Below are positions 1 to 49,745 of a DNA stretch of 64,000 bases, one piece after another. The first letter of the stretch is position 1; every line of letters starts with the position of its first letter. The notes under the pieces were generated by a model that worked only from the letters and a program-made list of their open reading frames with translations, was not told where the DNA came from and ran no database searches. Made by a program: the position numbers and the translations under genes. The DNA comes from Centroscyllium fabricii (Eukaryota): assembly GCA_051313645.2 (NCBI GenBank), contig JBNRSN020000014.1, positions 107,508,001-107,572,000 of the forward strand. The letters are read 5' to 3'.

Positions 1-609
1 CCCATTAACACCGGAGATGCTGCCAGCTCCATTTTGCAGGGGGCTGAACGGTAGGTGTTCCAAGCGCCTGCCTGTTTCAGCTGATAGGCCCCTTCTAGTA
101 TGGAAACTGGACTATGACGTAAATAGGACCCCGATTGCCATTTTAGGTTGGAACTCAACGGAGCCTGCGCCATACGGTCACCGACCAGTTTCATGGGTGA
201 TGGAGCCGAAAGAAGAAAGATGTGCATTTCTACAGCGCTTTTCACAACCACTGGATGTCCCAAAGCACTTTACAGCCAATTAAGTACTTTTTAAAGTGCA
301 GTCACTGTTGTAATGTAGAAAACGTGTGACGATTCGTCAATGAATCAAAGACGAGTAGTTACCTTAACTATAGGCTTTTATTCGCTTTACAAAGGAGCTA
401 CGCTCCAGTCGAACATCGAGTACAGAATGAATGGGGGCAGGTCAGACCCCACCTATAAGGCTCTCACCTGAGGGGAGGAGTTAGAGGTGTGGCTGACCTG
501 ACCTCACGACAGTGTCATAATACAAAAACTATGTACAGTGCACCCAGCCGCTATACATGCTGGTTTACAGTGGTAATAACGGTTACCACATTCACCCCTT
601 CTTTGAAAA

Positions 610-3600: not shown

Positions 3601-4836
3601 AGATGGCGGCGCCCGTGATTCGCACATGGCCGACCGCGGTGGGCAAGATGGCAGCACCGGGGAGTCGCACATGGCTGGCCGCTGAAGACAAGATGGCGGC
3701 GCCGGGGGGTCGCACATGGCTGGCCGCTGAGGACAAGATGGCGGCGCCCGTGATTCGCACGCGGCGGGCCGCTGTGGACGCGGTGGCGGTGCCCGTGGTT
3801 CGCACGCAGCGGGCCGCGGTGGCTGGGTTGGCGGCGCCCGTGATTCGCACGCAGCGGGCCGCGCTGGGCGAGATGCCGGCGTTGGGGGGTCGCACATGGC
3901 CGGCCGTGGCCGAGTTTGGCGTGCCGTGTGCGCGGCCGGCCTCTGCCGTATCAGGGTGGGCGATGGGGGCGCTTGTACTCTAGCCCCGGACCGTTGCTGG
4001 GTCGCGCTGCAACTGCAGCTTACCTGAGGCCAAGGGCCGGCGTTGGAGCTCACGCAGGCTGCGCTGTTGTGTCTGGAGTTGGGCGCTGGGGCCGATTTGC
4101 AGGCCCTGGCGTAATGTCCCTTTTTCCTACATTTCTCGCAGGTCGCGGTCCTCGCGGGGCATTTTGCTCACGGGTGTAGTCCCTGGCCGCAGAAATAACA
4201 TTTTCTATCCTCCGACGTCCTCGCAGCTGCCGCTGCCGTTGTGGGGGTCTCGACCCGTCGTGGGGCCGCCCAGGAGTCGAAGGTGGCTTGTGGGCCTTGG
4301 CCGCTATACGCCTCTAGTTTGCGGCATGCTCCATCCACTGCGTTGGAGATGGAGATTGCCTCTTCCAGCGATAGTGTTTCTTTCTCCAGCAGCCGCTGGC
4401 GGGCCTGGGCGGACCTGATCCCCGTCACGTAGGCGTCCCGGACGAGGAGTTTCGTCTCCTCCTGCGCCGTCCGTGCCTTGCAGTCACAGGCCCGGGCGAG
4501 GGCTTGGAGCGCCAACAGGTACTGTTCATTGGACTCACCAATTTGTTGTTGTCTGGTCGCCAGCACGTGTCTGGCATAGACCGACTGGACCGGGCGCACG
4601 TAGCATGCCTTCAGTTTCTCCACGGCTTCTGCGTACGTTTTAGCGTCGTGGATGAAGGAGTATACCCGGCTGGAGATCCTAGATGTGAGAACGTGGAGTT
4701 TGTTCCCGTCGGTTGTCGCCTTGGCGGCCTCCATGGAGGCCTCGACGAGACTGAACCAGTGTTCAAATGCATTGGCGGCGGCTGGGTCCTGTGGACTGAT
4801 GTCCAGCTTTTCGGGTTTCACAGCGCCGCTCTCCAT
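610..4836 (-). pseudogene. gag-pol polyprotein of element A (Gag zinc knuckle, protease, RT, RNase H, integrase); one frame with two premature stops
   Basis: ORFs 4168-4836, 1342-4053 and 610-1254 are in the same frame, with stops at 4168-4170 (HP*, likely CGA>TGA) and 1342-1344 (TS*NPRG). Motifs: CYFCG, LFDTGS, YLDN, ESDASD, HHCC, SVDFKG, HSDRG. Confidence 0.93.
3590..3905 (-). repeat. In-frame 45-bp (15-aa) tandem array, about 7 units, between Gag and protease
   Basis: RPAACESRAPPSCPQ-type units; four carry caagatggc(g/a)gc on +. Confidence 0.9.
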
Positions 4837-4846
4837 TTTAATTTTG

Positions 4847-4858
4847 AAGCGAATAAAA
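4847..4858 (-). promoter_or_regulatory. Non-tRNA PBS-position sequence complementary to LTR 4909-4920
   Basis: aagcgaataaaa (4847-4858) is the exact reverse complement of ttttattcgctt (4909-4920). Confidence 0.85.
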
Positions 4859-6321
4859 TTGACGTATCGTCAATGAATCAAAGACGAGTAGTTACCTTAA
4901 CTATAGGCTTTTATTCGCTTTACAAAGGAGCTACGCTCCAGTCGAACATCGAGTACAGAATGAATGGGGGCAGGTCAGACCCCACCTATAAGGCACTCAC
5001 CTGAGGGGAGGAGTTAGAGGTGTGGCTGACCTGACCTCGCGACAGTGTCGTAATACAAAAACTATGTACAGTGCACCCAGCCACTATACATGCTGGTTTA
5101 TAGTGTGCTTAACCATTACAGTGGTAATAATGGTTACCACAATGTGGCAGCTAATTTGCGCACAGCAAGCTCCCACAAACAGCAATGTGTTAATGACCAG
5201 ATCATCTGTTTTAGTGATGTTGATTGAGGGATAACTATTGGCTAGGACACTGGGAATAACTCCCCAGCTCTTCATCGAAATAGTGCTATGGGATCTTTTA
5301 CGTCCACCTGAGAGAGCAGATGGAGCCTCGGTTTAATATCTCATCTGAAAGACGACACCTCCGACAGTACAGCACTCCCTCAGTACTGCACTGGAGTGTC
5401 GGCCTAGATTTCTGTGCTCAAATCTCTGGAGTGGGACTTGAACCCACAACCTTCTGACTCAGAGGTGAGGGTGCTACCCATTAAGCCACAACTGAAAAAA
5501 GAGGCCCGCTAAAGATAAGTGTCGAATTATCTTCGCTGAGTGCTCCTACGGAGTCCACTAAAATAACCAGGGCTCTGCCAGCCCGGGATCTCCATCCTCT
5601 ACAATCGCAACTTACCTTGTGCCGCCCTGGCCCACTACTGAGGCCTCAATCCAGCGAGCTGCACTGGGATGCCTGTTCAATGCCCCGCAGCTCACCTGCC
5701 AAATTTAAATGAGGCCTGGGCCTCAAAACCGAGGAGGGCTCTTCGCCACCGGAGCAGGCGACCGACCAGCACCCTGGTCGGTCGCGCATAATCAAAATCG
5801 ATTCCTATGTGTGCGGATTTGAGGTGAGGACAGGTTTGAGCTCAGCTGTGGTGCACCTGTAAAGCATGTGAAAAATGGCCACTTGCGAGAGGCAACTGTA
5901 CACCAGCAAGGACCTTCAGGAGAATAGGAAAAGGAAGAGAAATTAATGGGAACAGCACAGTAAATCTTAGATAATAAAAAGGATGCTAAACTCAACTAAA
6001 AATCCAAAGAATGTGTTAAATAAATAATACCTGTGAACAATATCCCAATAATATATAGAGGCGATAAATTGGGCAATAATAATGGCCCGGAATTTGTGGT
6101 TGGAGGTGTACCTCCGGAGTACATCTCTGACAAAATTTAAAATAATCCACATCTAGATGGCGGCGTGCATAGACGCAGTGGCTTTGCGTCTCCCAAGATG
6201 ATGCTGTCCGCTGGTTGTTCCCGTACTGGTTCTGGGTCCGTTCGCCGGCGGGGTCAGTGTGGTAGAGCTCCGGGGTCACACCGAGGTTGACACACCTAGG
6301 CTGTCGTGGTCAGAGCGGCAG

Positions 6322-6789
6322 GGCCCGAATGGCTGGATCATCGGGGCCTGCGTGGCCGGAGCGCCGGGGCCCGAGTGGCTGGAACATCGGGGCCTGCGTG
6401 GCTGGAGCACTGGGGCCCGAGTGGCCAGAACATCGGGGCCTGCGTGGTCGAAGTGCCGGGGCTCGAGTGGCCGGAACATCGGGGCCTGTGTGGGTGGAGC
6501 ACTGGGGCCCGAGTGGCCGGAACATCGGAGCCTGCATGATCAAAACGCCGGGGCCTGAATGGCCGGTTCATCGGGGCTTGCATTTCTGGAACATCAGGGC
6601 CCGAGTGGTCGAAGCGCCGGGGCCTGAGTGACCGGAACATCAGGAGCTGTGTTTCCGGAACATCGGGGCCCGAGTGGTCGAAGCTCCGGGGTCCGAGTGG
6701 CCGGAACATCGGGGCCTGCGTGGCCGGAGCACCAGGGCCTGAGTGGCCGGAAAATCGGGGCTTGCGTGACCAGAGTGCCGGGGCCTGCG
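6322..6789. repeat. GC-rich minisatellite, 23-bp monomers alternating as a 46-bp dimer (about 20 monomers)
   Basis: gtggccggaacatcggggcctgc alternates with gtggccggagcgccggggcccga. Confidence 0.9.
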
Positions 6790-6834
6790 GATGGAGTGGA
6801 TCAGACTGAAACTTACAGAAGAGGACATTTTAAT

Positions 6835-7767
6835 GGGCCATGTTTTCCTGTGGCCCGATTGCTGCGGGTGCGCGCTCACGTGCACCTGCAGCGCATGCCC
6901 ACGTAATTTTTTTTTCTGACGGCAATTTCCTGTGGAAAATGCCGGGTTTTTTTTGCTGCGTAGGGGTCTGGTTTTTTTTGGTGCGTGGTGCTTTGTGCGT
7001 AGGTTGTGAGCTGGCCACGCCCACTGAGGTCGGCTTTCCCCCCGCACAAAGCACAGAATCGGCCTCAGGACAAAGAATATCGGGTAGGAAGCACCTTGTT
7101 ATTTTTAAGTTTCTAGGAAGCACCTTGTTTTTTTTAAGTTTCTAGGAAGCACCTTGTTTTTTTAAAGTTTCTAGGAAGCACCTTGGTTTTTTTTGGTGGA
7201 AGTGAAAAAAACACGTTTAAAGGTAAGTTTTTTTTTGATTCCTTTGCAGATATTTGTCTCTGGTCTTTCAGCTTGTAAATGGGTAGGGTTTTTTTTTGGT
7301 GAAAGTGAAAAAAAAACGGGTTTTTAACGCGAATTAAGCAGCTGTGATGGCCACCAGAGCTGCTGACATCACGTTAAAAACCCGTTTTTTTTCCACTTTC
7401 ACCAACAAAAAAAACCCCTACCCATTTACAAGCTGAAAGACCACAGACAAATATCTGCAAAGGAATCAAAAAAAAACTTACCTTTAAACGTGTTTCTCCA
7501 CTTCTCAAAGCTGCTGCAGCACCTCTAAGACTGCTTTTTAAATGTGCATCTCAAGAGAGACTTGCCCACGTGATACACACGTATTTTGAGCAGCTGCCAC
7601 AGGAAATCGGCAGCTCAAAGTCTTCCTGGGTAGGAAGCTGAAGCCCCTTGCCCATCAGCACAGGAAATTCACGTTTCTGGTAATCACCCGAGCTGCACCC
7701 CCACGAGGCATTTCTGACCCCCCTTCGTGAGGGTGCAGCTCTTCTGGAGCACAGGAAAACAGGGCCC
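6835..7767. mobile_element. Harbinger-type MITE with long internal palindrome
   Basis: TIR gggccatgttttcctgtg / cacaggaaaacagggccc; TSD AAT. Internal inverted arms at about 7210-7332 and 7369-7495. 29-bp tandem repeats at about 7085-7190. Confidence 0.8.
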
Positions 7768-8729: not shown

Positions 8730-10432
8730 ATTCGGATCTTGGGCCTGCTGGCGTATGCCTGCGTAAATGTCCACGGATCCCAGGGACGCAGGCGTTTTGG
8801 AAGCATCCCTGGGATCTCGTGAGCCCGGTCCTCCAATCAGAAAGGAGGAATCATAATATGCTTATGGCTTTTCCAGTTACAAACGGAATCGCCATAAGCT
8901 TATTAGGAATCTCCAAATAATTAAATAATTTATACAACTGGAAAAAAATAATTGTTCCCATTTTCAAATTTACTTAAAAGTTCCTTCAATAAAGCATTTA
9001 CAATAAAAATGTAATTTTGGGAAAAATAATTTTAAACATTTTAATCCAGGCCAAAATTTACATAAACTGATTTTAAATGTTTGTGCATGATTATTTATTA
9101 AAATATTTTTAATTTAAGACTTATATTAACCCTCACACTGGTGAAAGCAGGCCCTGTACCTGCTTTTTCCAGGCGTAAGTGTTTTGTGGGCATTCGCTGG
9201 GCAGTAGTTGGGCAAATCGCCCAGCTCTGCACCAGCGGAAGTGATTTTTGGGTCGCTGCAGATGATCTGTCAAGGCGAATCTTGACATCGCAAGTTCCGG
9301 GTTTTCACTCCTGCACAGCGCATGTGGAAACCTGGAACTTGCGGGGCCTTTCTGATGGCTGTGTGTACGCCGTCATTGGGAGCACAAAATCTGGGCCAAT
9401 GTTTATGATCCCAAAATGATAACTTCTGTGTGAATTCAAGCCAAATTGCAAATTTAGTGCAAGTTCAAATAATAGTACTGTAACTGGATTTGTGTTTATT
9501 TTGGAGTATCTATTGCCACTGACAACAGCATTTGGAGCCCATCTTCCATTTTAACAAGGCCCAGAAACTTAAACCAATTTGATAAAAATGCTTTCGAAGA
9601 TCACAAGATAATAGGCCATTCAGCTCACCATAATTCATGCATCCAGCATGACCCTAAAGACTTTGACTGCAGTTTCCAATTGGTTCTTAAATGATTCCAG
9701 GATTTTCACCTCTGCTATATATGCGAGAGTCCATTCCGTGTACAGGAAACTCTTTGGTATCCGGCACCTATGGGAGCGGGATGGTGCCGGTTGATTAAAA
9801 ATTCCGGACAACGGAGAGGTATACCTACCAAGGTACAAGGGCCCCGTTACACAGCACACCTGTTACACCGCCACAGGTGCAGGAGCAGGAGTCCCTGTTA
9901 CATGGCCACAGCCACAGGAACCCCAGTTACACGGCCACAGATCCAGGAACCCCCAGTTACACGGCCACTAATATCCAGTAAAACTTACCTGAACCTACTC
10001 CTGAATGTTGCCGGTTAAGAGAGATTTCCGGATATTAGTGATACCATCAATTACTCGAGTCTGAGAGCAAGTTAACATAGGCTTTAATAAACTTAGAACA
10101 AGCGTAAGGGATCACAGGTATCGTTAGTACAGTACAGTAGAGAGGAGGTCAGAACCCACGAGTGCTGACCTTTATACCCCCAGGGTCAGAGGCGTGGCCT
10201 ACCCGAGGTCCTCCAGGTACAGGTCTCCCAAGTCTGGCTGGGCAAGAGTAGACACGCCCTAAGGCATGTACATACACATAGTTGGTGTTATAGCCAATAT
10301 CACCACATTCACCCCCTGTTAAAGAATTTCAGTACCAGGGGGGGCACAAACAATAACTAACATATGTACAGACAGTATTTACAAAGGTTCCGAGATGTTC
10401 CAAAAAAATTGTGGCCGCCTGTTCATGCCAGG

Positions 10433-13400
10433 TCACATTGAGCAGACCAGGCGGTCTGGCTGGCGTCGCACCCTCGACGACCGTCTGAGCTGCTGGTCCT
10501 GCCGTTCGGTATCGGTACCTGGGGAAGCCGAAGGAGTATACGTTAGCAGCGCGTCACCAGGGAATACAGCGGTATGGGTCGGTGGGGGGCTGGGCACGGG
10601 CTGCGATGTGGGTGGTGCCGGCTGGACCCACGACGAGAGGAAGGGGGGTGGGGGCGGAGTTGTGGTCGCGGGGGCGCCTGCGGGCGCCAGGTCTTTAATA
10701 GAGACTGTGTCCTTCCTGCCATCAGGGAACTCCACATAGGCGTACTGCGGGTTAGCATGGAGGAGGAGTACCCTGTCGACCAGTGGGTCGGTCTTATAGT
10801 GCCGTACATGGCGCCGCAACAGTACTGGGCCCGGGGAGGCTAGCCACGACGGCAGCGACATCCCCGAGACGGACTTCCTGGGGAAGGAAAACATCCGTTC
10901 GTGCGGCGTTGCGTTGGTCGCTGTACAAAGAAGCGACCGTACGGCGTGTAGAGCGTCCGAGAGAACCGCCTGCCAGCGTGAGGCTGGAAGGCCCCTGGAC
11001 CTGAGTGCCAGGCGGACCGCCTTCCAGACAGTGCCATTCTCGCGCTCTACTTGGCCATTGCCCCGGGGGTTGTAGCTCGTTGTCCTGCTCGACGAGATTC
11101 CTCTCGCGAGTAGGAACTGGCGCAGTTCGTCGCTCATAAAAGCAGACCCCCGGTCAGAGTGTATGAATGAGGGGAAGCCGAATATTGCGAATATCGGGGC
11201 GAGGGCGTTGATGACTGTGGCAGCAGTCATATCAGTGCAGGGTATCGCAAATGGGAAACGGGAGTATTCGTCCACGACTGTGAGGAAGTAGACATTCCTG
11301 TCGGTGGACGGGAGTGGGCCCTTAAAATCAATACTAAGGCGTTCGAAGGGCCGAGAGGACTTAATCAGGTGTGCCTTGTCCGGTCGGAAAAACTGCGGCT
11401 TGCATTCCGCACAGACCGGACAATCCCTGACTATCTCCCTAACCTCCGCAATACTATACGGTAGATTGCGGGCTTTGATAAAATGATAGAAGCGGGTGAC
11501 CCCCGGGTGGCAGAGGTTATTGTGCAGAGCCTGCAGTCTGCCCGCCTGCACGCTGGCGCAGGTCCCGCGGGACAGTGCATCAGACGGCTCGTTGAGTCTA
11601 CCTGGCCTGTACAAAATATCATAATTAAAGGTGGACAATTCGATCCTCCACCTCAAGATCTTATCGTTCTTAATTTTTCCCCGCTGTGTGTTACTAAACA
11701 TAAATGCTACCGACATCTGATCGGTGAGCAGGGTAAATTTTCTACCGGCCAGGTAGTGTCTCCAGTGGCGCACCGCTTCGATAATGGCTTGGGCCTCTTT
11801 TTCCACGGAGGAATGCCGTGCTTCCGAGCCCGAGAGGGTACGGGAAAAGAAGGCAACGGGTCTGCCTGCTTGGTTCAGGGTCGCCGCCAGGGCGAAGTCG
11901 GACGCGTCGCTCTCCACTTGGAAAGGCACGTCCTCATCAATGGCGGACATTGCCGCTTTTACTATATCGGCTTTAAGTTGCTTAAAAGCCGTTAGTGCCG
12001 CTGCCGACAGGGGAAAAACAGTGGCCCGCATCAGAGGCCGGGCTTTGTCCGCAAATTTCGGGACCCACTGCGCGTAATACACGAACAGCCCCATGCACCG
12101 CTTTAGAGCTTTGGGTGTCTTGGGAAGGGGATACTCAATCAGCGGGCGCATTCGGTCAGGGTCCGGGCCGATTAACCCGTTTTCCACCACACAGCCCAAA
12201 ATAGCCAGGCGTCTGGTGCGGAAAACACATTTTTCTTTGTTGTAGGTCAAATTCAGGGATTTGGCTGTTTTCAAAAATTTAGCGAGGTTCTCGTCGTGGT
12301 CCTCGTCCGAGTGGCCGCAGATGGTGACATTATCTAGATAGGGAAAGGTGGCCCTGAGCCCGTGTTCGTCTACCATTCTATCCATTTCCCTCTGGAAGAC
12401 GGACACTCCGTTCGTCACTCCGAAGGGAACCCGAAGGAACTGGTAGAGGCGACCATCCGCTTCGAAAGCGGTGTAGGGGCGCTCCTCTCTGGGGATTGGG
12501 ACCTGGTGATATGCCGCTTTAAGGTCTATAGTCGAATAGACTTTGTATTGGGCAATTTCATTTACCATGTCCGAGATCCGGGGAAGGGGGTACGCATCGA
12601 GGAGTGTAAACCGGTTTATGGTCTGACTGTAGTCGACCACCATCCTGTTCTTCTCCCCCGTCTTTACCACTACTACTTGGGCCCTCCAGGGGCTGCGGCT
12701 GGCTTCAATCACCCCCTCTGCCAACAGTCGCTTCACCTCGGTGCCAATAAACGCCCTGTCTGCAGCACTATACCGCCTGCTCTTTGAGGCAATCGGTGCG
12801 CAGTCCGGCGTGAGGTTCGCGAACAGTTTCGGGGGTGAGATCCGTAAAGTGGTGAGCCCACAAAGCGGGCGCTCACGGGGGGTACTCGACTCGACCGTCA
12901 GGGGTGGGAGAGGGCCGCCGTATACCAGGGTGACACACTGCAGGTGGCTCTGGAAATCGAGCCCCAATAACACTGGGGCGCACAAGTGGGGTAACACAAA
13001 CAGTTTAAAATTACAGTATTTTACCCCGCGAACTACAAGTGATACTTCGCAACACCCCACGGCCTGCGCCGATTCTGAGTCCGCCGCCAAGGCGATGCGT
13101 TTTAAACAGGGGCGGATCGACAAGCGAAGACGGTCAGCGGTCTCGGGGGAAATAAAACTATCAGTACTACCCGTATCAAATAAACAGTTACAGTTTTGTC
13201 CGTTTACCTGGACGTCCATCATTGATTTCTGCAGTTCATGGGGTTTTGATTGGTCCAAAGTGATGGACGCCAGCACGGTTGATGAGTCGTCTTCATCCGA
13301 ATATTCTGGGTCGGAGTCAATTCGAAGACTCTCAAAATGGCCGCTGCCTCGTGGTGATGAACTAAGATGGCCGCTCCTCCTAGCTGTGGCCTCAAGATGG

Positions 13401-14248
13401 CCGCCGCCTCGTGGTGCTCCCTCGCGGTCATCTACCTCCGTGTAGTAGGAACGTGGTGCCGCTCTCGCTCCGCTGCAGATGGGGGCTGTCTTCTTTTTCT
13501 GCCCTGTTGCGCGGCACATCGTGGCATAGTGCCCCTTCTTTCCACACCCCGAGCACGTAGCATCTTTGGCTGGGCAGCGCAGTCTAGAGTGCCTAGCTTT
13601 TCCGCAAAAGAAACACTTTTGGTTGGTTTCAGGCCTGCTTCTTCCTGCCGCTGCCGTTAGCGCTGGGGTAGGAGTTGGGGCTGGGGATGCCCACGTAGGC
13701 GCGCTTGGTTGGCCATACGTGGTGGATCTCCGATCTGCATTGTCCAGATTTACAATCAGGGAGGCTGCTTCTTTTAACGTTAGCTCATCCCGTTCTAGCA
13801 GTCGGGCCCTGATATATGGGGAGTATACCCCTCTTACCAGAGCGTCCAGTGCCAGTTCGTTGTAGTGTTCGTCCGCCGTCAGGGGGCCAGGGGCGCAATC
13901 TCGGGTCAGCGCACAAATTTCTTTCACGAATTTGGCGCCCGGTTCCTCGGCGCTCTGGGCTCTCTGAGTCAACACGTGCCTTGAGTGAACAGCGTTGGCT
14001 GCTGGCACAAATTGTTCTTTCAGTTTCTTCATGGCCTGTTCGTAATCCGACTCCCCTTCGATGAGGTGGTAATGGTCAGCACTGATTCTGCAGTGTAGAA
14101 TTCGGCTCTTCTGCTGATCAGTTGAAGCAGTCTCTTTCACTTCGTCGATATAGCTCCTCAGCTGCTGTTCCCAGTGTTTATACCGGCGTTCGGCATCGGG
14201 AGCAGTCGCATCAATTTCCAAGATCGGGACAGCCAGAATTCGGTCCAT
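10433..14248 (-). CDS. Single-ORF Gag-Pol polyprotein, 1271 aa (zinc knuckles, aspartic protease, RT, RNase H, integrase; no chromodomain seen)
   Basis: CFFCGKARH…CSGCGKKGHYATMC, LFDTGS, STIDL…PFG…YLDN, ESDASD/EKEA/TDQ, H-x4-H…CPVC, IDFKG…HSDRG…VERENG. Confidence 0.97.
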   Translation of the reverse strand: MDRILAVPILEIDATAPDAERRYKHWEQQLRSYIDEVKETASTDQQKSRILHCRISADHYHLIEGESDYEQAMKKLKEQFVPAANAVHSRHVLTQRAQSAEEPGAKFVKEICALTRDCAPGPLTADEHYNELALDALVRGVYSPYIRARLLERDELTLKEAASLIVNLDNADRRSTTYGQPSAPTWASPAPTPTPALTAAAGRSRPETNQKCFFCGKARHSRLRCPAKDATCSGCGKKGHYATMCRATGQKKKTAPICSGARAAPRSYYTEVDDREGAPRGGGHLEATARRSGHLSSSPRGSGHFESLRIDSDPEYSDEDDSSTVLASITLDQSKPHELQKSMMDVQVNGQNCNCLFDTGSTDSFISPETADRLRLSIRPCLKRIALAADSESAQAVGCCEVSLVVRGVKYCNFKLFVLPHLCAPVLLGLDFQSHLQCVTLVYGGPLPPLTVESSTPRERPLCGLTTLRISPPKLFANLTPDCAPIASKSRRYSAADRAFIGTEVKRLLAEGVIEASRSPWRAQVVVVKTGEKNRMVVDYSQTINRFTLLDAYPLPRISDMVNEIAQYKVYSTIDLKAAYHQVPIPREERPYTAFEADGRLYQFLRVPFGVTNGVSVFQREMDRMVDEHGLRATFPYLDNVTICGHSDEDHDENLAKFLKTAKSLNLTYNKEKCVFRTRRLAILGCVVENGLIGPDPDRMRPLIEYPLPKTPKALKRCMGLFVYYAQWVPKFADKARPLMRATVFPLSAAALTAFKQLKADIVKAAMSAIDEDVPFQVESDASDFALAATLNQAGRPVAFFSRTLSGSEARHSSVEKEAQAIIEAVRHWRHYLAGRKFTLLTDQMSVAFMFSNTQRGKIKNDKILRWRIELSTFNYDILYRPGRLNEPSDALSRGTCASVQAGRLQALHNNLCHPGVTRFYHFIKARNLPYSIAEVREIVRDCPVCAECKPQFFRPDKAHLIKSSRPFERLSIDFKGPLPSTDRNVYFLTVVDEYSRFPFAIPCTDMTAATVINALAPIFAIFGFPSFIHSDRGSAFMSDELRQFLLARGISSSRTTSYNPRGNGQVERENGTVWKAVRLALRSRGLPASRWQAVLSDALHAVRSLLCTATNATPHERMFSFPRKSVSGMSLPSWLASPGPVLLRRHVRHYKTDPLVDRVLLLHANPQYAYVEFPDGRKDTVSIKDLAPAGAPATTTPPPPPFLSSWVQPAPPTSQPVPSPPPTHTAVFPGDALLTYTPSASPGTDTERQDQQLRRSSRVRRQPDRLVCSM
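13330..13420 (-). repeat. Three 30-bp in-frame repeats (xxRxxGH[LF]xx) with YY1-type motifs
   Basis: aaaatggccgc, aagatggccgc and aagatggccgcc on + at 30-bp spacing. Confidence 0.8.
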
Positions 14249-14267
14249 TTTTGGATTTTAGCGACGA

Positions 14268-14282
14268 TCTAAGTTTATTAAA
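14268..14282 (-). promoter_or_regulatory. Non-tRNA PBS-position sequence complementary to LTR 14328-14342
   Basis: tctaagtttattaaa vs tttaataaacttaga, a perfect 15-bp inverted repeat. Confidence 0.9.
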
Positions 14283-14850
14283 TTGATACCATCAATTACT
14301 CGAGTCTGAGAGCGAGTTAACATAGGCTTTAATAAACTTAGAACAAGCGTAAGGGATCACAGGTATCGTTAGTACAGTACAGTAGAGAGGAGGTCAGAAC
14401 CCACGAGTGCTGACCTTTATACCCCCAGGGTCAGAGGCGTGGCCTACCCGAGGTCCTCCAGGTACAGGTCTCCCAAGTCTGGCTGGGCAAGAGTAGACAC
14501 GCCCTAAGGCATGTACATACACATAGTTGGTGTTATAGCCAATATCACCACAATTAGGTGCCGTTTAAACGAGAGTTTCCTGTACTGATCACTCTTTGTG
14601 TCAAGAAACACTTCTTGACATCAGTCCTAAAATTGTCTGTTGCAAGTTAAAACTTGTGATTCTAAGGGCTAGAAATTGGTCTTGGGCGGTGGCTGCAATG
14701 GAACTGAATATCAGGTGCTGTGTATAAGGGGTGGCCAATCCGATACCACCTGTTTTACGCCACTGTCTGAGACCAATTCCTAGGCCTTTAAATGGTTTAA
14801 TTGAAAGTAATTTTCCAGAGTTACCTATTCCATTGCATTTTATCGAGCTG

Positions 14851-23654: not shown

Positions 23655-26162
23655 CATCATAGGTGACTTTAACTTGCATATAGATTGGACTAGCCAAATT
23701 AGTAAAAATAATGAGGAGGAGGAATTCCTTGAGTGTGTAAGGGATGGTTATCTGGATCAATATGTCGAGGAACCAACTCGGGATCAGGCTATCTTGGACT
23801 GGGTACTGTGCAATGAGAAGGGACTAATTAGTAATCTTGTTGTACGGGGACCCTTGGGTCAGAGCGATCATAACATGATCGAATTCTCACTCGAAATGGA
23901 GAGCGAAGAAACTGACTCAGAGACTAAGGTCCTGAATTTAAATAAGGGGAATTATGATGCCATGAGACGGGAATTAAGTAAGTCTGATTGGGCAGCGTTT
24001 CTGGGGGGACTGGCGGTGGATAAACAATGGCAAGCATTTAAAGACAGAATGGCAGAATTGCAGAAATTGTTTATACCAATCTGGCATAAAAAGAAATCTA
24101 AAAAGGTGACTCAACCGTGGATAACAGGGGAAATTAGGGACAGCATAAAATCCAAAGAAAGGGCATATAAAATAGCCAAAAAAAGCACCAGACCTGAAGA
24201 TTGGGAACAGTTTAGGATACAACAAAGGAGGGCAAAGGGATTAATCAGGAGGGGAAAAATAGCGTACGAAAGTAAGCTTGCGGCAAACATAAAAACTAAC
24301 TCCAAAAGCTTTTACAAGTATATTAAGAGGAAAAGACTGGTGAAATCCAAAGTCGGTCCATTACAGTCAGATTCTGGGGAATATATAATGGGAAATAAGG
24401 AAATGGCAGACCAATTAAATGCATATTTTGGGTCTGTCTTCACAAAGGAAGACACAAAAAACCTCCCTGAGATATCGGGAACCATAGGGACAATTGGAAG
24501 GGAGGAACTGACAAAAATCAATATCTCTAAGGATATGGTGTTGGGGAAGCTAAAGGGACTGAAGGCTGACAAATCCCCAGGGCCTGATAACATGCATCCT
24601 AGGGTACTCAAGGAGGTGGCCCTAGAGATAGCAGATGCTTTAAGGATAATTTTCCAGAATTCAATAGACTCGGGAACAGTGCCCATGGATTGGAGGGTAG
24701 CTAACGTTACCCCACTATTTAAAAAGGGGGGTAGGGAAAAAGTGGGTAATTACAGACCTGTAAGCCTTACATCGGTGGTGGGCAAAATACTAGAGTCCAT
24801 CATTAAGGATGTAATAGCAGAGCACTTGGCAAATGGGGACAGGATAGGACAGAGTCAACATGGATTTACAAAAGGTAAATCGTGCTTGACGAATCTATTG
24901 GAATTCTTTGAGGAAGTAACTGGTAAAATAGATGGGGGAGAGCCAGTAGATGTGGTGTACCTGGACTTCCAAAAAGCCTTCGATAAGGTCCCACATAAAA
25001 GATTAGCATGTAAAATCAAGGCTCATGGGATAAGGGGAAAAGTATTGACGTGGATAGAGAACTGGCTGGCAGATAGAAAACAGAGAGTTGGAATAAACGG
25101 CTCATTTTCTGAATGGCAGGCAGTAACAAGTGGGGTACCTCAGGGATCTGTCCTGGGTCCCCAGCTGTTCACAATTTATATTAATGACCTGGATCAGGGA
25201 ATCGGATGCAGCATCTCCAAATTCGCAGACGACACTAAACTAGGAGGGGGGGGTAGGCTCAGAAGAAGAGATCAGGAAGCTCCAGAGCGATTTGGACAAA
25301 TTGGGGGACTGGGCAGATACATGGCAAATGCACTATAATGTGGATAAGTGTGAAGTTATCCACCTTGGGGGCAAAAACGGGAGGGCAAATTATTATTTAA
25401 ATGGCAATAGATTGGGAGATGGGGAAGTACAGAGAGACCTGGGTGTTCTTGTGCACCAGTCATTGAAGGCGAGCATGCAGGTGCAACAGGCGGTCAGGAA
25501 GGCAAATGGTATGCTGGCCTTCATGTCAAAAGGGTTGGAATACAGGAACAAAGACACCTTACTACAGCTGTACAGGGCACTGGTGAGACCACACCTCGAG
25601 TACTGTGTGCAGTTTTGGTCGCCTCATCTGAGGAAGGATGTTCTTGCCATGGAAGGAGTGCAGCGGCGATTCACCAGGCTGATACCAGGAATGGCAGGAA
25701 TGACCTATGAGGAGAGACTATGTAGTCTGGGGATGTACACACTGGAGTTTAGAAGATTGAGAGGGGATCTCATAGAAACATATAAAATTCTGACAGGCCT
25801 GGACAGACTAGATGCAGAAGGAATGTTTCCGATGGCAGGAGAGTACAGAACTAGGGGACACAGTTTAAGGATAAGGGCTAAACCATTTAGGACAGAGATG
25901 AGGAGGAATTTCTTCACCCAGAGAGTGGTGAACCTGTGGAACTCACTGCCACAGAGGGCAGTGGACGCCAGCTCATTAAATATATTTAAGAGGGAATTAG
26001 ATATATTTCTGCAGGCAAAAGGGGTTAAAGGTTACGGAGAGAAGGCAGGGACGGGATACTGAACTGAAGGATCAGCCATGATCTCAATGAATGGCGGAGC
26101 AGGCTCGAAGGGCCGAATGGCCTACTCCTGCTCCTATCATCTATGTATCTATGTATCTATGT
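23655..26162 (+). mobile_element. CR1 LINE (inner, 5'-truncated copy) inserted in the outer CR1
   Basis: ORFs 23290-25338 and 25292-26062 are separated by one frameshift in a G-run at about 25245. (tatctatg)n tail ends at about 26162, after which the outer copy resumes (agaagggactaattag). Confidence 0.88.
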
Positions 26163-28271
26163 AGAAGGGACTAATTAGCAATCTAGTTGTACGAGGCCCC
26201 TTGGGTCGGAGCGATCATAATATGATCGAATTCTCAGTTGAGATGGAAAGTGAAAAGATCAACTCGGAGACTAAAGTCCTTAATTTAAATAAGGGGAATT
26301 ATGAAGGTATGAGAAGGGAATTAAGTTAAATTGATTGGGCAGTGTTCCTGGGGGGATTGAATGTGGATAGACAATGGCAAGCATTCAAGTATAGAATGGA
26401 AGAATTACAGAACTCGTTTATACCGGTTTGGCATAAGAATAAATCTAGAAAGGTGACTCAACCGTGGATAACAAGGGAAATAAGGGACAACATTAAATCC
26501 AAAAAATGGGCATATCAATTGGCCAAAAAAACTACCAGGCCGGAAGATTGGGAGCAGTTCAGGATACAGCAAAGGAAGACTAAGGGATTAATCAGGAGGG
26601 GGAAGATAGATTACGAATGTAAGCTTGCGGCAAACATAAAAACTGACTGCAAAAGCTTTTATAGGTACATCAAGAGGAAAAGATTGGTAAAATCCCAAGT
26701 CGGTCCCTTGCAGTCCGATTCAGGGGAATATATAATGGGGAATAAAGAAATGGCAGACCAACTAAATTCATATTTTGGTTCTGTCTTCACAAAGGAGGAC
26801 ACAAGCAACCTCCCAGGGATAGCAGCGAACATAGGGTCTAATGCAAGGGAGGAGCTGACAGATATCAGTATTTCTAAGGAGATGGTTTTGGGGAAGTTGA
26901 AGGGATTGAAGGCCGACAAATCCCCAGGGCCTGATAATCTACATCCTAGGGTACTTAAAGAGGTGGCCCTGGAAATAACGGGTGCTTTAAGGATCATTTT
27001 CCAGAACTCGATAGACTCTGGATCAGTACCCACGGATTGGAGGGTGGCTAATGTTACCCCACTATTTAAAAAGGGGGGGCAGAGAGAAAGCAGGGAATTA
27101 TAGACCAGTAAGCCTTACATCAGTAGTGGGCAAAATGCTCGAGTCCATTATCAAGGATGTAATCTCGGAGCATTTGACAATTAGAGATGAGATCGGACAG
27201 AGTCAACATGGATTTACAAAAGGTAAATCGTGTTTAACTAATCTATTGGAATTCTTTGAGGAAGTAACTCGGAAAATAGATGGGGGAGAGCCAGTAGATG
27301 TGGTGTACCTTGACTTCCAGAAAGCCTTCGATAAGGTTCCACATAAAAGATTAGCATGTAAAATTAAGGCTCATGGGATTGGGGGCAAAGTTTTGATGTG
27401 GATAGAGAACTGGTTGGTAGATAGAAAACAGAGAGTTGGAATTAACGGCTCGTTTTCTGAGTGGCAGCCGGTGACTAGTGGGGTACCGCAGGGGTCTGTC
27501 CTGGGACCCCAGCTGTTTACAATATATATTAATGATCTGGATCAGGGAATTGAATGTAATATCTCCAAATTCGCGGATGACACCAAACTAGGAGGGGGGC
27601 GGGCTCTGAAGAGGGTGTCAGGAAGTTACAGGGTGATTTGGATAAGTTGGGGGACTGGGCAGATAGATGGCAGATGCACTATAATGTGGATAAATGTGAG
27701 GTTATCCACTTTGGGGGCAAAAACAGGAGGGTAGATTATTACTTAAATGGCAATAGATTGGGAGATGGGGAGGTGCAAAGAGACCTAGGTGTTCTTGTGC
27801 ACCAGTCGCTGAAGGCGAGCACGCAGGTGCAGCAGGCGGTTAGGAAGGCAAATGGTGTGTTGGCCTTCATATCAAGAGGGTTCGAGTATAGGAATAAGGA
27901 TACCTTACTACAGCTGTACAAGGCACTGGTGAGACCACACCTCGAGTATTGTGTACAGTTCTGGTCGCCTCGCCTGAGGAAGGATGTTCTTGCCATGGAA
28001 GGAGTGCAGCGGCGTTTCACCAGGCTGATTCCTGGAATGGCAGGAATGACCTACGAGGAGAGATTATGTAGTCTGGGCTTGTACTCATTGGAGTTGAGAA
28101 GATTGAGAGGCGATCTCATTGAGACGTATAAAATTCTGAAAGGTCTGGACAGGTTAGATTCAGAGAGAATGTTTCCAATGGCGGGGGAGTCCAGAACCAG
28201 GGGCCACGGTCTAAGAATAAGGGGTAAGCCATTTAGGACAGACATGAGGAAGAATTTCTTCACTCAGAGAT

Positions 28272-37456: not shown

Positions 37457-37749
37457 TGACGTATCGTCAATAAGACTAAAGACGAGTAGTTACCTTAACT
37501 ATAGGCTTTTATTAACTTAACGATGGAGCTAGCCTCCATACGAACATCAGGCACAGAATGACTGGGGGCAGGGCAGACCTCACCGATAAGGCTCCCACCT
37601 GAGGGGAGGAGTTAGAGGTGTGGCTGACCTGGCCTTACAACCGTGTTCTACATCCAATACATCCAATGCACCAAGCAACTATATACATGGGTCATGTGGT
37701 GCAGTACAACTACAATCCAACTATATACAATGGTAATATGATTACCACA
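37457..37749 (-). mobile_element. Solo LTR, element-A family, inserted in a CR1 remnant
   Basis: tgacgtatcgtca…ttaccaca; TSD attgt. Confidence 0.92.
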
Positions 37750-43850: not shown

Positions 43851-44315
43851 TTGATAGTATCATTTAAAAGAGAAATGGGCAGGTTCCTAATTTGACAAAG
43901 AATAAAAGATACAAAACTTAGATAAAGGAGGAAATTAAAAATGGTCAATGAATGAGCTTTTTGAAAGTGAGGTAAACAGTCTGAGCTAGATTGGTTGCAC
44001 TGCCTTTAGCGATAAAGTACCTCCCCAATAAACAGCGAAGACATATCCGGAGGACACTGTGGTAACCCTTATATGGTTACCATTACCTTATATGGCTACC
44101 ATTGTATAAGTGCCATTGTACTGCTGGGAGCCAGGTCAGCCACATCCTCGACTCCTCCCCAGGTGGGGACACCGATATAAGGTGTGGCCAGACCCAGCCC
44201 CTTCATTCTTGTATGTGAACTTGTAAAAAGACTAGCTCCATTCTTTATCAATTAAAAGCCTTGTATTTCAGTACTAACAAGTCACCTTTTAATTGAGTTA
44301 GCGACTACGCTACAA

Positions 44316-44329
44316 TTTTAATTGATAAA
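44316..44329 (+). promoter_or_regulatory. Non-tRNA PBS-position sequence complementary to LTR 44244-44257
   Basis: ttttaattgataaa vs tttatcaattaaaa, a perfect 14-bp inverted repeat. Confidence 0.9.
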
Positions 44330-44335
44330 CTTAAA

Positions 44336-47300
44336 ATGGAGAGCAGCACGTTAAAACCTAGGGAGCTGGACATTAGCCCCCAGGATGATGCGGCACCAGC
44401 TACCTTCAAGCACTGGTTTGGATTACTAAAGGCCTATATGGCAGCAGCCAAGGCTACCACGGACGAGGACAAACTCCAACTCCTGCTATCCAGGGTCTCC
44501 AGCAGGGTTTTCACCCTTGTCGAGGACCTTACAACCTACGAGGAAACGGTGACGACCCTCAAACAGTACTATGAGCGCCCGGTCCACTCTGTCTACGCCC
44601 GCCACCTACTAGCGACCCGATCTCAACTACCCGGTGAGTCAAACGACCAGTTTGAGCAAGCGCTCCGGGGCATGATACGGGCCTGTGGCTGCAAGGGTGG
44701 ATTGACCAAGGCACAGGAAGAAAACATCCTCCTCCGGGACGCCTATGTCTCAGGACTAAGATGTGCAGTAGCCCGTCAGAGGCTACTGGAAAAGGACAAT
44801 CTGACCCTTGAGGAGGCAACCACGTTAGCCAAATCGGTGGAGGGGGCCCGGAATAAATCGCAGACGTACGGTGGTACCAGCCATCAAGTCTACAACATAT
44901 GGGCCGCACCACAACAGGCGTCACGGATTGAGAGCCCCACGACGGCCGCGACGGCCACCACGGACACTAAGCTCAAACACTGCTATTTCTGCGGCCAAGG
45001 ATTGCACCCCAGAGCAAAATGCCCAGCCAAGACGGCGACCTGCGAAAAATGCTCCAAGAAGGGACACTTCGCCAAAGCCTGCAGAGCCACTCCAGCCACA
45101 GCATCTAAAAGGTACAACAGTGCAGTCTGTGAGAGCAACCATCACCAGGTAAGCTGCATTTGCAGTGCTATTCAGCGACGGCAAGCGCCCCCACCTCGAT
45201 GCAGCGGCAACCGGCCAAACGCGAGCTTACAACGCAGCCGGCTGCGTGCGAATCACGGGCACCGCCAACCCGACCACCGCGGTTCGCTGCGTGCAAATCA
45301 CGGGCGCTGCCAGCGCGTTCACCGCGGCTCGCTGCGTGCGAATCACGGGCACCGCCAGCGCGTTCACCGCGGTTAGCTGCGTGCGAATCACGGGCACCGC
45401 CAGCGCGTTCACCGCGGTTCGCTGCGTGCGAATCACGGGCACCGCCAGCGCGTTCACCGCGGTTCGCTGCGTGCGAATCACGGGCACCGCCAACGCATCA
45501 GAGCCCCGCAGTAACGCTACCCCGCAACCCAGGCCCCTCCATGTGTGAACCACGGAAGACGCCATCTTGCGCCCAGGGCTCCTCCATGTGCGAGCCAAGG
45601 GCGGCGCCATTTTGTACCCGGGGCCCCTCCATGTGCGAGTCAAGGGCGGCGCCATTTTGTACCCAGGGCCCCTCCATGTGCAAGCCAAGGGCGGCACCAT
45701 TTTGTATCCAGGGCCCCTCCATGTGCGAACCATGGGCGGCGCCATTTTGTGCACAGTCCCCATCAGCAGGGGCTGCTACAACTACAGTCAGCCAAAGCAA
45801 GCCCCATCACTTGTCTAATTCATTAATACGTATTAGGATTAATAACCATACCGTCGACTGCCTTCTCGACACGGGCAGTACCGAGAGTTTCATTCACCCT
45901 GATACAGTGCGGCGTTTCGGGCTGCAGGTCCTGCCCACCAACTACCAAGTGTCCCTAGCTTCACAGTCCCACACCGCGGACGTCACCGGCTACTGCTCCG
46001 TCACGCTCACCGTCCAGGGACGCGTGTACCGCAATTTTAAATTCTATACCCTCAAAAAGTTGTGTGCCCCAGCCTTACTAGGCTTGGATTTCCAGTGCCA
46101 CTTCAAGAGCGTGACCATGGAGTTCGGCGGGACTTTACCCCCCCTCACCCTCAGTAGCCGGGACAATCTCCCCCCGAAGCGGACCCCGGCCTGCGGCCTC
46201 TCCACCCTGAAAATCGACCCCCCATCGCTGTTCGCCAACCTCGACCCAAAGTGCAAACCAATCGCCACTAAGAGTCGGCGGTACAGTGAGGGGGGTCGCA
46301 CGTTTATCAGGTCGGAGGTCGGGCGGATGCTGAAGGAGGGGATTATTGAAGCCAGCACCAGCCCCTGGCGCGCCCAAGTTGTAGTGGTGAAGTCTGGTGA
46401 GAAACAATGGCTAGTGATCGACTATAGCCAGACTATCAACCGCTACACCGGGCTCGACGCCTACCCCTTCCCCGCATCTCAGAAATGGTCAACCAGATCG
46501 CCCAGTACAAGGTGTTCTCCACAATCGACCTTATGTCGGCGTATCATCAGCTCCCGATTCGGAAAGCCGACCGCCCCTACACCGCCTTCGAGGCGAACGG
46601 TCAGCTCTACCACTTTCTCCGGGTCCCCTTTGGCGTGACCAACGGAGTGTCCGTGTTCCAGCGGGAGATGGACCGTATGGTTGACCAGAATGACTTGCAG
46701 GCCACCTTCCCCTACCTGGACAACGTGACCATCTGCGGCCACGACCAGCAGGACCACGATGCCAATCTGGCCAAATTCCTCGCCACGGCGGCTAAGCTGG
46801 ACCTTACGTATAACAAAAACAAGTGTGTCTTTAATACAACCCGGCTCGCCATCCTCGGATACGTGGTGGAGAACGGGCTCCTCGGCCCCGACCCACAGCG
46901 TATGCGACCCCTGCTAGAACTGCCCTTACCTCACAACCCCAAAGCCTTGAGGAGATGCCTAGGATTTTTCTCCTACTATGCACAATGGGTCCCACAGTTC
47001 GCAGATAAGGCTAGACCACTCCTCAAGGCTGCACTCTTCCCCCTTTCTATAGAAGCCCAAAAGGCATTCGAAAAGATAAAGGAAGATATCATCAAGGCGA
47101 CCATGCTCGCTGTTGATGAATCCATCCCTTTCCAGGTGGAGAGTGACGCTTCGGACTTTGCTCTTGCTGCCACCCTGAATCAGGCAGGCAGGCCCGTAGC
47201 GTTTTTCTCCCGCACCTTACAGGGACCCGAGACTCGCCACTCTGCAGTGGAAAAGGAGGCCCAGGCCATCGTGGAGGCCGTGCGCTACTGGCGTCATTAC

Positions 47301-48785
47301 CTGGCCGGTAAGCGTTTTACCCTGCTCACCGACCAACGGTCGGTGGCGTTTATGTTTAATAATAAACTACGGGGTAAAATCAAGAATGATAAGATCATGC
47401 GGTGGCGGATCGAACTCTCGACTTACGAGTACGACATTCTTTACCGACCAGGCAAACTCAACGAACCCCCGGACGCACTGTCCAGGGGAACGTGCGCCAG
47501 TGCCCAGCTAGACCGGCTGAAGGATCTCCATGACCGCCTCTGTCACCCGGCTGTCACCAGATTAGCCCATTTCGACAAATCACGTAGCCTCCCCTACTCC
47601 ATCACGGAGATCAAGGAGATGACCCGAGATTGCCCTGTCTGCGCCGAGTGCAAACCCCACTTTTTCCGGCCAGACACGGCGCACCTCATTAAGGCCACCC
47701 GCCCCTTTGAACGTCTCAGCGTGGACTTCAAAGGCCCCCTCCCCTCCACCGACCACAACTCATACTTCCTCACGGTAGTGGATGAGTTCTCCCGCTTCCC
47801 CTTCGCCTTCCCCTGCCCAGATATGACGAGCGCAATGGTGATCAAACACTTCACCACGCTGTTCGCCATCTTCGGTCTCCCCAGCTACATCCATAGCGAC
47901 CGGGGGTCATCGTTCATGAGCGATGAACTGCGCCAGTTTCTGCTCCAGAAAGGGGTTGCCACGAGCAGGACGACCAGTTATAACCCCCGGGGGAACGGCC
48001 TGGTAGAAAGGGAGAATGGGATCATTTGGAAGGCGGTCACCCTGGCTCTCAAGTCCAGAGGCCTTTCAGTGTCCCATTGGGAGGCAGTCCTCCCAGACGC
48101 GCTGCACTCTATCAGGTCATTATTATGTACTGCTACTAATGCCACCCCGCACGATCTTGTTTTTTCCTTCAACAGGAAGTCAACTTCGGGGACGGCGCTC
48201 CCACCATGGCTGACGACTCCGGGGCCGGTTTTCCTTAAGCGGCACATTCGGTGCCACAAGACGGACCCCCTGGTGGACAAGGTACAGCTCCTACACGCCA
48301 ACCCCCACTATGCCTTTGTGCAGTTCCCAGACGGGCGTGAGGACACCGTGTCCATCAGGGACCTGGCCCCGGCTGGAAACACCGCCACAGCGCCTCCTGC
48401 TGGCCAGCAGGTCGACCTACCACCAGACACAAGATGGGCCCCGAGTTTCCCCGCCGATGCACCAGACGATGAGGTCCAGCAGAACCCACCACGTCCAGAA
48501 CTTACAGCACCAACGGAGGCGGGCTATTCGACTATGGAGGCATCACCACCAACACCGGAACCCCGGCGGTCCGCAAGACAAACGCGACCGCCGGAGAGAC
48601 TGATTATGAACTGTTCCGTACATTCACCCCCCCCGGACTCAAAGTTTTTAAGAAGGGGTGAATGTGGTAACCCTTATATGGTTACCATTACCTTATATGG
48701 CTACCATTGTATAAGTGCCATTGTACTGCTGGGAGCCAGGTCAGCTACACCCTCGACTCCTCCCCAGGTGGGGACACCGATATAA
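44336..48785 (+). pseudogene. gag-pol of element C with frameshifts at about 45190 and 46470
   Basis: ORFs 44336-45376, 45160-46638 and 46485-48785 align with the single frame of element A; LLDTGS, YLDN, RNase H and integrase motifs present. Confidence 0.92.
45235..45755 (+). repeat. Two adjacent 45-bp in-frame arrays (6 plus 5 units)
   Basis: RLAACESRAPPARSP x6 then GPSMCEPRAAPFCTQ x5; the second array carries (g/a)ccat(c/t)ttg. Confidence 0.92.
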
Positions 48786-48919
48786 GGTGTGGCCAGACCC
48801 AGCCCCTTCATTCTTGTATGTGAACTTGTAAGGAGACTAGCTCCATTCTTTATCAATTAAAAGCCTTGTATTTCGGTACTTACGAGTCGCCTTTTAATTG
48901 AGTGAGCGACTACGCTACA

Positions 48920-49745
48920 GACACCACGGTGGTTGGCCAGATCACCAACAACAATGAGTCAGCCTACAGGGATGAGATCCAGCGCCTTGTGGGATGGTGT
49001 GCCGACAACAACCTGGCACTGAACACCAAGAAAACTAAGGAGATCATAGTGGACTTCCGGAGGACTGGAAGCAGAAGACACACCCCCATCTTCATCCAAG
49101 GGGCTGAGGTGGAAAGGGTGTCCAGCTTCAAGTTCCTCGGGGTCCACATCTCGGAAGATCTTTCCTGGTCACTAAACACCTCCTCTCTGGTTAAGAAGGC
49201 CCAACAGCGCCTGTACTTCCTAAGGAAGCTGAAGAAAGCCAGGCTGTCATCCGGCATCCTCTCCAACTTCTACCGCTGCACAATCGAAAGCATACTGACA
49301 AGCTGCATCACTGTCTGGTATGGAAATTGCACCATCTCGGACCGGAAGACCCTGCAGCGGGTAGTCAAAACTGCCCAACGAATCACCGGTACCCAGCTAC
49401 CGTCAATGGAAAGCATCTACCTCAAACGCTGCCTACGGAGGTCTCTGAACATTATTAAAGACCACACACACCCCAGCCACAGTCTGTTCGCCCCCCTGCC
49501 CTCCGGGAGACGCTACAGATCAATTCGCACCCGCACGACTAGATTTAAGAACAGCTTCTTCCCCAGGGCTGTCAGCATCCTGAACTCTAAATTCCGGTAC
49601 CTGCACACCTGAAAATGTACTTTACTGTATGCAATTTGCATGTAATTTATTTGCACTACTCTCGGGAGCGTCGAGTCTTCGTCTCGTTGTATTGTACTAG
49701 TACTCTGCAATGACAATAAAACATGAATTGAATTGAATTGAACTG
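48920..49745 (+). mobile_element. Rex1/Babar-like LINE, 5'-truncated RT C-terminus
   Basis: DTTVVG…NESAYR…LNTKKTKEIIVDFR…FKFLGVHI…FYRCTIESIL…LPSGRRYRS…NSFFP; aataaa plus (tgaat)n tail. Confidence 0.88.

Follow-up and report, generated by a model that had tools for sequence, protein, structure and literature searches.

A candidate self-priming duplex at the poly(A) signal of Ty3/Gypsy elements without a chromodomain

What is the role of a sequence just downstream of a 5' LTR that is complementary to an LTR segment carrying a putative poly(A) signal? Three full LTR elements raised this question in the window, i.e., the whole stretch of 64,000 nt of Centroscyllium fabricii DNA that was analysed: A (327-5141, minus strand), B (10039-14552, minus strand), and C (44058-48919, plus strand). 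The original prediction was that an LTR segment containing AATAAA or ATTAAA, followed by GCC, pairs with an arm located after the 5' LTR, that its complement exists only there, and that the duplex masks the poly(A) signal only in the 5' LTR, either in addition to or instead of priming. The first part was borne out: the paired LTR segment holds the hexamer and then GCC in A, B, and C, and in each of them the arm is its exact complement.

Elements A, B, and C and their leader arms

Each element was bounded by TG...CA LTRs and flanked by a target duplication of 5 bp, and each contained a polypurine tract. Pfam analysis revealed protease, RT, RNase H, and integrase in the Gypsy order (PR-RT-RH-IN) and no env match in A, B, and C, and by this order, the LTR ends, the polypurine tract, the target duplication, and the lack of env, the three were identified as Ty3/Gypsy elements. 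No chromodomain was detected in the eight ORFs examined by the Pfam scan, nor among the Pfam domains listed for the top 120 homologues. The best named homologues among these 120 were from catshark and rays, followed by those from corals, insects, nematodes, and a sea cucumber. The RT active-site motif of A, B, and C and their homologues was YLDN, not YxDD, and a literature search found nothing in which YLDN and gypsy occurred together. The features of the elements were located as follows.

44058..44314, plus strand: 5' LTR of C, TG...CA, 257 nt, 96% to 48663-48919; target duplication GACAC at 44053-44057 and 48920-48924
44174..44182, plus strand: TATA-like box of C, predicting a start at about 44205, some 53 nt ahead of the duplex end
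44244..44257, plus strand: LTR strand of the duplex of C, TTTATCAATTAAAA, putative self-primer; putative cut after 44257, then GCC
44251..44256, plus strand: ATTAAA hexamer of C, putative poly(A) signal; 3' LTR copy at 48856-48861
44286..44296, plus strand: second complement of the hexamer segment of C, 11-nt CTTTTAATTGA, inside U5; 3' LTR copy at 48891-48901
44316..44329, plus strand: leader arm of C at the PBS position, exact complement of 44244-44257; 1-nt spacer A at 44315, LTR CA ending at 44314
44336..48785, plus strand: gag-pol of C (Gag with two Zn-knuckle motifs, PR, RT, RNase H, IN), with two frameshifts
48650..48662, plus strand: polypurine tract of C, ending GGGGTGAA before the 3' LTR
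48663..48919, plus strand: 3' LTR of C, counterpart of 44058-44314
4860..5141, minus strand: 5' LTR of A; 3' LTR at 327-590; target duplication CACAT/CACGT
4909..4920, minus strand: LTR strand of the duplex of A, with AATAAA at 4915-4910
4847..4858, minus strand: leader arm of A, 12 bp
14284..14552, minus strand: 5' LTR of B; 3' LTR at 10039-10307; target duplication CTAAT
14328..14342, minus strand: LTR strand of the duplex of B, with ATTAAA at 14333-14328
14268..14282, minus strand: leader arm of B, 15 bp; the arm itself has a sense AATAAA

Some other features of the window were also recorded. B has a single open frame of 1271 aa and LTRs that are 99.6% alike, and one public run contained near-identical contigs at very high depth, suggesting that B is a young and abundant family. 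In-frame 45-nt tandem repeats lie between Gag and protease in A (3546-3951) and C (45180-45764) and are absent from B. A solo LTR of the A lineage (approximately 37457-37749, minus strand) has a 5-bp ACAAT duplication and AATAAAAGCC, with no adjoining arm. Elsewhere, a 2.35-kb duplicated unit with long ORFs (23816-27893), a 23-nt tandem array (6215-6858), and, right after C, an ORF with an ALKBH8_N Pfam match (48902-49612) were found. ARAGORN detected no tRNA genes in the window.

The leader arm begins one base past the LTR-terminal CA and spans 12 bp in A, 15 bp in B, and 14 bp in C, for which the numbers of chance matches expected in a 250-nt LTR are 1e-5, 2.6e-7, and 3.8e-6, respectively. 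The hexamer in the duplex was the sole sense AWTAAA of the LTR in all three, and its position suggested that it is the working poly(A) signal. Over the whole element, hexamer complements of at least 8 nt were found once in A, once in B, and three times in C, where the 11-nt sequence in the U5 of each LTR was added to the arm. The predicted restriction of the complement to the neighbourhood of the 5' LTR hence held for A and B, with one site each, and failed for C. As a feature of the clade, the U5-internal complement was rejected: it reached 11 nt in C alone and at most 7 nt in the other 22 families.

In the predicted folds of A and C, the duplex extended over an internal loop and paired the Gag AUG region (44237-44243 with 44335-44341 in C), and several relatives have arms that end at the ATG. 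Such pairing of the AUG region could possibly serve as a switch between translation and priming.

The duplex in related elements

Relatives were collected as 97 loci from two scans; a Gag-only alignment was too variable as a search query, and no relatives were found among viral contigs. Sixty-four loci were dropped for lack of a Gag N-terminus or of upstream DNA, and the 33 usable loci made, with A, B, and C, a set of 36. L004, L032, L057, L070, and L072 were re-added since their arms were visible, and were counted for hexamer identity, not for the presence of the duplex. Grouping by eye gave 23 families, which became 28 family representatives with the five arm-selected loci.

The duplex was in place in 35 of the 36 loci, and L030 shows it via its 3' LTR end. 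Priming of L030 by a tRNA, as its TGG after the CA might indicate, was rejected: 12 bp of its arm are complementary to the end of its own 3' LTR. With offsets of 0-3 allowed, an offset of 1 was obtained for 26 of the 36 loci, and the other ten had CACA ends, were point-mutated copies, or, in one case, L030; in 18 of 20 cases, the 3' LTR placed the CA end at the same point. None of the 28 representatives had TGG within 6 nt of the LTR end, and 25 distinct 11-nt arms were counted among them, which indicates that the arm follows the sequence of its own LTR, not that of a tRNA. The distance from the arm start to the ATG was 15-44 nt, with no TGG in the gap, and that from the LTR segment (5' copy) to the arm was 24-70 nt. 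The duplex is real and clade-wide.

Two observations concern individual loci. L001-L008 are animal-type retrotransposon contigs inside assemblies filed as bacterial MAGs, likely as host contamination. In L068 (approximately 610-780), the leader runs on past the arm into upstream LTR sequence repeated directly over 17 nt, and this repeat overlaps the arm by a short word common to both; it resembles the outcome of a template switch during primer copying.

Pairing at -1 to -11 before the duplex end was found in 27-28 of the 28 families, and from -12 to -18 the paired families numbered 25, 24, 22, 16, 15, 11, and 4. The 11-bp core opens at a conserved AG. Information peaked at A-11 (22/28), at G-10 (25/28), and at AAA|RCC; the AG columns carried 1.16 and 1.82 bits, and the hexamer columns -6 to -4 carried 0.73, 0.38, and 0.54 bits. 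The 336 pairs of the first 12 columns comprised 329 Watson-Crick pairs, seven mismatches, and no G-U, whereas the neighbouring U5 hairpin had 13 G-U in 66 pairs, a contrast biased by the choice of the duplex register by Watson-Crick count and by the permission of G-U in the hairpin search. The gag sequences of L027 and L028 agree at 99.2% over 1.1 kb, yet the two loci differ by a G>T at -7, present in both LTRs, for which the arm carries the matching change. The absence of G-U and this matched change, seen in one close pair, would fit an arm rewritten from the LTR segment.

AWTAAA lay inside the duplex in the three window elements and, among the 28 families, in 16 by the LTR arm and 18 by the leader arm; the duplex thus does not cover a canonical signal in every family. 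Ten families had a perfect or near-perfect duplex without AWTAAA (GGTAAA, GTTAAA, TTTAAA, TGAAGA, GATAAA, GTGAAA, and AGTAAA), and in three of the 28 a canonical hexamer was located outside the duplex, in U5. Seven of the ten carry GTTAAA, GGTAAA, TGAAGA, or GTGAAA, which are not known to be among the common poly(A) signal variants. Three of the non-canonical duplex forms, AGTAAA included, are minor variants of the signal. AGUAAA serves in this way in MMTV (PMC12789967; this and the other papers are cited for excerpts). On an RT tree (quick SH-aLRT, 37 rows, fetched loci only, with L007 and L008 left aside), non-canonical hexamers had at least four separate origins, with the duplex retained. 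Judged from these families, the conserved feature is the duplex, not the hexamer. The hosts of the non-canonical families may read looser signals, which weakens the evidence that these families provide against masking. A poly(A) signal upstream of the duplex, with TAAA as the RNA end, was not favoured, as no canonical hexamer was present within 80 nt upstream in any of the 36 loci.

Priming and the choice of the poly(A) site

We consider it likely that the duplex is a Tf1-like self-primer in a Ty3/Gypsy lineage without a chromodomain. Complementarity, register, and conservation were observed directly; cleavage, priming, templating, and the start site we infer. The LTR segment would pair with the arm at the PBS position, and the element's RNase H, as in Tf1, would presumably cleave the RNA where the duplex ends on its 3' side (AAA|RCC). 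The freed 3'-OH would prime minus-strand DNA via the one spacer base into U5, and the primer would later be copied into plus-strand DNA, by which the arm would be rewritten from the LTR segment in each cycle. The hexamer lies at the primer 3' end in many families, presumably because a poly(A) site is required just past the cut and because the primer end is A-rich. Since a cut at AAA|RCC would make strong-stop DNA end at RCC, the poly(A) site should fall just beyond it to leave R homology for strand transfer, and this would place the hexamer near the primer 3' end.

The start site was considered from several sides. In L057 and L072, the LTR before AG was only 39 and 44 nt long, with AT-rich TATA-like sequence upstream, suggesting a start close to the duplex. 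The context of the AG resembles the initiator TCAKTY (named in an excerpt of PMC3601003), and 18 of 28 fit a loose version. In A, B, and C, transcription predicted from the TATA boxes would begin 53-65 nt upstream of the cut, leaving an unpaired flap of 39-50 nt, a point against a simple Tf1 geometry. Pairing also often reached -14 or -17, past an 11-nt primer beginning at AG. A U5 hairpin flush with the cut (RCC) was found in 14 of the 23 families, B and C not among them (shuffle mean 4.2; 0 of 1000 shuffles reached 14), and the other two helices of the Tf1 pretzel were not identified, with no further helix conserved in the predicted folds. No poly(A) tails were seen by eye at contig ends.

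Alternatively, the segment in the 3' R, either in cis or on a second genome, could act as the primer: the arm would pair with this 3' copy, and the cut at AAA|RCC would remove the tail. R upstream of the segment would then serve strand transfer. The segment is identical in both LTRs, and such priming would account for the pairing past -11 and for a use of the 39-50 nt of upstream R in A, B, and C. However, the local 5' copy, 24-70 nt off, should pair first, and the excerpts of the literature surveyed contained no precedent. We regard this route of priming, and likewise the corresponding role of upstream R, as unlikely.

A further alternative, which we judge very improbable, is that the duplex solely masks the poly(A) signal and another primer is used. 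The AWTAAA overlap seen in most families and the mismatch of the TATA-predicted starts in A, B, and C with the Tf1 geometry would agree with it, but masking requires no fixed register at the CA, no perfect Watson-Crick pairing, and no flush AAA|RCC end. Moreover, the gap of 15-44 nt to the ATG offers no alternative primer site and no TGG, and the duplex survives without the hexamer. With its fixed register, no tRNA site, no G-U, and ten of 28 families lacking AWTAAA, the duplex spoke against the earlier suggestion that it acts in masking instead of priming.

Self-priming would leave room for masking as a second effect. Folding predictions gave hexamer opening costs of 7.0 kcal/mol in the 5' context vs 1.1 kcal/mol in the 3' context for A, 7.8 vs 1.3 kcal/mol for B, and 6.3 vs 5.3 kcal/mol for C, with 3.8 kcal/mol in a longer 3' context of C. 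The 5'-specific masking originally proposed was thus reproduced by predicted folding in A and B, while C showed a weak contrast between 5' and 3'. In a folding series from the TATA-predicted starts, the opening cost in A and B stayed at 2.4 or lower until 60-65 nt past the cut had been transcribed. Cleavage is expected 15-23 nt after the hexamer (excerpt of PMC12789967), and in A and B this site would already be transcribed before the predicted masking sets in. Such late closing may be compatible with masking because cleavage may be slower than folding. On these models, masking would be a physical consequence of the duplex and need not be selected, and hiding the poly(A) signal is probably a side effect, not the main job.

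Selection of the priming duplex also to hide the 5' poly(A) hexamer, as a 5'-specific switch, is conceivable, though we are doubtful of it. AWTAAA within the duplex in all three window elements and in 16 (LTR arms) or 18 (leader arms) of the 28 families, the lack of any further sense AWTAAA in the LTRs of A, B, and C, and the structure-based suppression described for HIV-1 (excerpt of PMC12789967) would agree with such selection, as would the far higher predicted opening cost at the 5' end in A and B and the range of 3.1-10.2 kcal/mol in the 5' context over 35 copies. On the other hand, ten families have no AWTAAA in the duplex, three have a canonical hexamer outside it in U5, and the hexamer columns -6 to -4 are less conserved than AG and AAA|RCC. 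In addition, C is predicted to mask the hexamer in both LTRs, and in A and B the hexamer is predicted to be open until approximately 60 nt past the cut.

We lean slightly towards a choice between the 5' and 3' sites by cap proximity of the hexamer and/or by U3 signals of the 3' copy, which is compatible with priming. The cap-to-hexamer distance would be +6 if the start is AG and about +50-60 if it is TATA-driven. Retroviral 5' sites are suppressed via cap proximity, U3 enhancers, U1 snRNP, weak signals, and structure (excerpts of PMC12789967 and PMC3694450), and the roles of cap-to-signal distance and U3 enhancers are established there. In A and C, a U3 branch-point/pyrimidine/CAG acceptor and a gag donor could define a terminal exon. 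The donor CAG|GTAAGC lies just after the gag Zn knuckles in A (4026-4018, donor 4023) and C (45146-45154, donor 45149), and the acceptor just upstream of the TATA box, with the AG ending at 5001/468 in A (minus strand) and 44162/48767 in C (plus strand). Across the relatives, however, acceptors were found in 11 of 28 vs 7.0 +/- 2.3 in shuffled sequences (78 of 1000 reached 11), which was not significant, and a strong donor (8 of 9) in only three of 21 scorable elements; a clade-wide splice acceptor or donor was rejected on these counts. From the sites in A and C, splicing could give an mRNA that carries gag alone and terminates in the 3' LTR; in B, the donor, near 13207, is weaker, and a site resembling an acceptor lies near 14483/10238.

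Relation to known systems

The widest reading, which we put forward only tentatively, is that an animal-wide Gypsy lineage without a chromodomain evolved self-priming apart from Tf1/sushi and that the helix of its vertebrate members has two selected jobs, namely shut-off of the 5' poly(A) site and the primer cut at the 3' edge of the signal. With both jobs, the mask would be rebuilt to match the signal in every cycle because the primer is copied into the arm. Self-priming in these elements would, if true, make them a second self-priming Gypsy lineage across animals, vertebrates included, and would bear on whether tRNA- or hairpin-priming came first; self-primed elements would also be expected to escape tRNA-fragment silencing. 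The overlap with the poly(A) signal makes a compact system in which paired mutations can separate priming from 3'-end choice. As a hypothesis, the poly(A) switch has its weakest case in C.

In the literature excerpts searched, no animal Gypsy clade outside the chromoviruses was reported to self-prime, and supplements of mollusc and annelid surveys may contain the clade. These excerpts describe self-priming in Tf1/sushi chromoviruses, and for a single copia lineage of plants it has been predicted (PMC6317226). The Tf1/sushi elements (S. pombe Tf1, Tf2, Tj1, Tosmo, sushi, and Tcn1) share with the present ones an LTR-complementary PBS and the lack of a tRNA site (excerpts of PMC7175516, PMC10085805, and PMC4600332), and a three-helix structure is common to the Tf1/sushi elements (PMC10085805, PMC4600332). 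The Tf1 primer consists of the first 11 bases, with the RNase H cut between 11 and 12, and thus resembles the 11-bp core of the present duplex (PMC7175516). Unlike A, B, and C, in which no chromo match was obtained, Tf1/sushi elements have a chromodomain at the integrase C-terminus. The present putative primer also differs in overlapping AWTAAA in most families and in its pairing of 12-18 bp, and A, B, and C differ from Tf1 in the upstream TATA-predicted start, with a flap of 39-50 nt that is absent from Tf1.

The self-primer of TAR/Houba/Osr-1 Ty1/copia was predicted by the same test, i.e., an LTR complement of at least 10 bp located 0-5 bp past the LTR (excerpt of PMC6317226). Those elements are copia with plant hosts, whereas the present ones are Gypsy-order elements of animals. 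By its short LTRs, 5-bp target duplication, two Gag Zn-knuckle motifs, length of 4.2-4.9 kb, and broad metazoan range, the clade may match the Mag lineage or Cigr-1-like animal Gypsy clades. Typical Mag elements are tRNA-primed, unlike what the present duplex suggests, and the RT motif here is YLDN.

The HIV-1 poly(A) hairpin is present at both RNA ends. It is local, whereas in A and B the partner of the hexamer lies outside the LTR; the U5 helix of C is the HIV-like case. Suppression in HIV-1 also draws on U1 snRNP, cap proximity, and U3 signals. In HIV-1, the hexamer in R is base-paired (excerpts of PMC12789967 and PMC3694450), as is likewise predicted for the elements described here.
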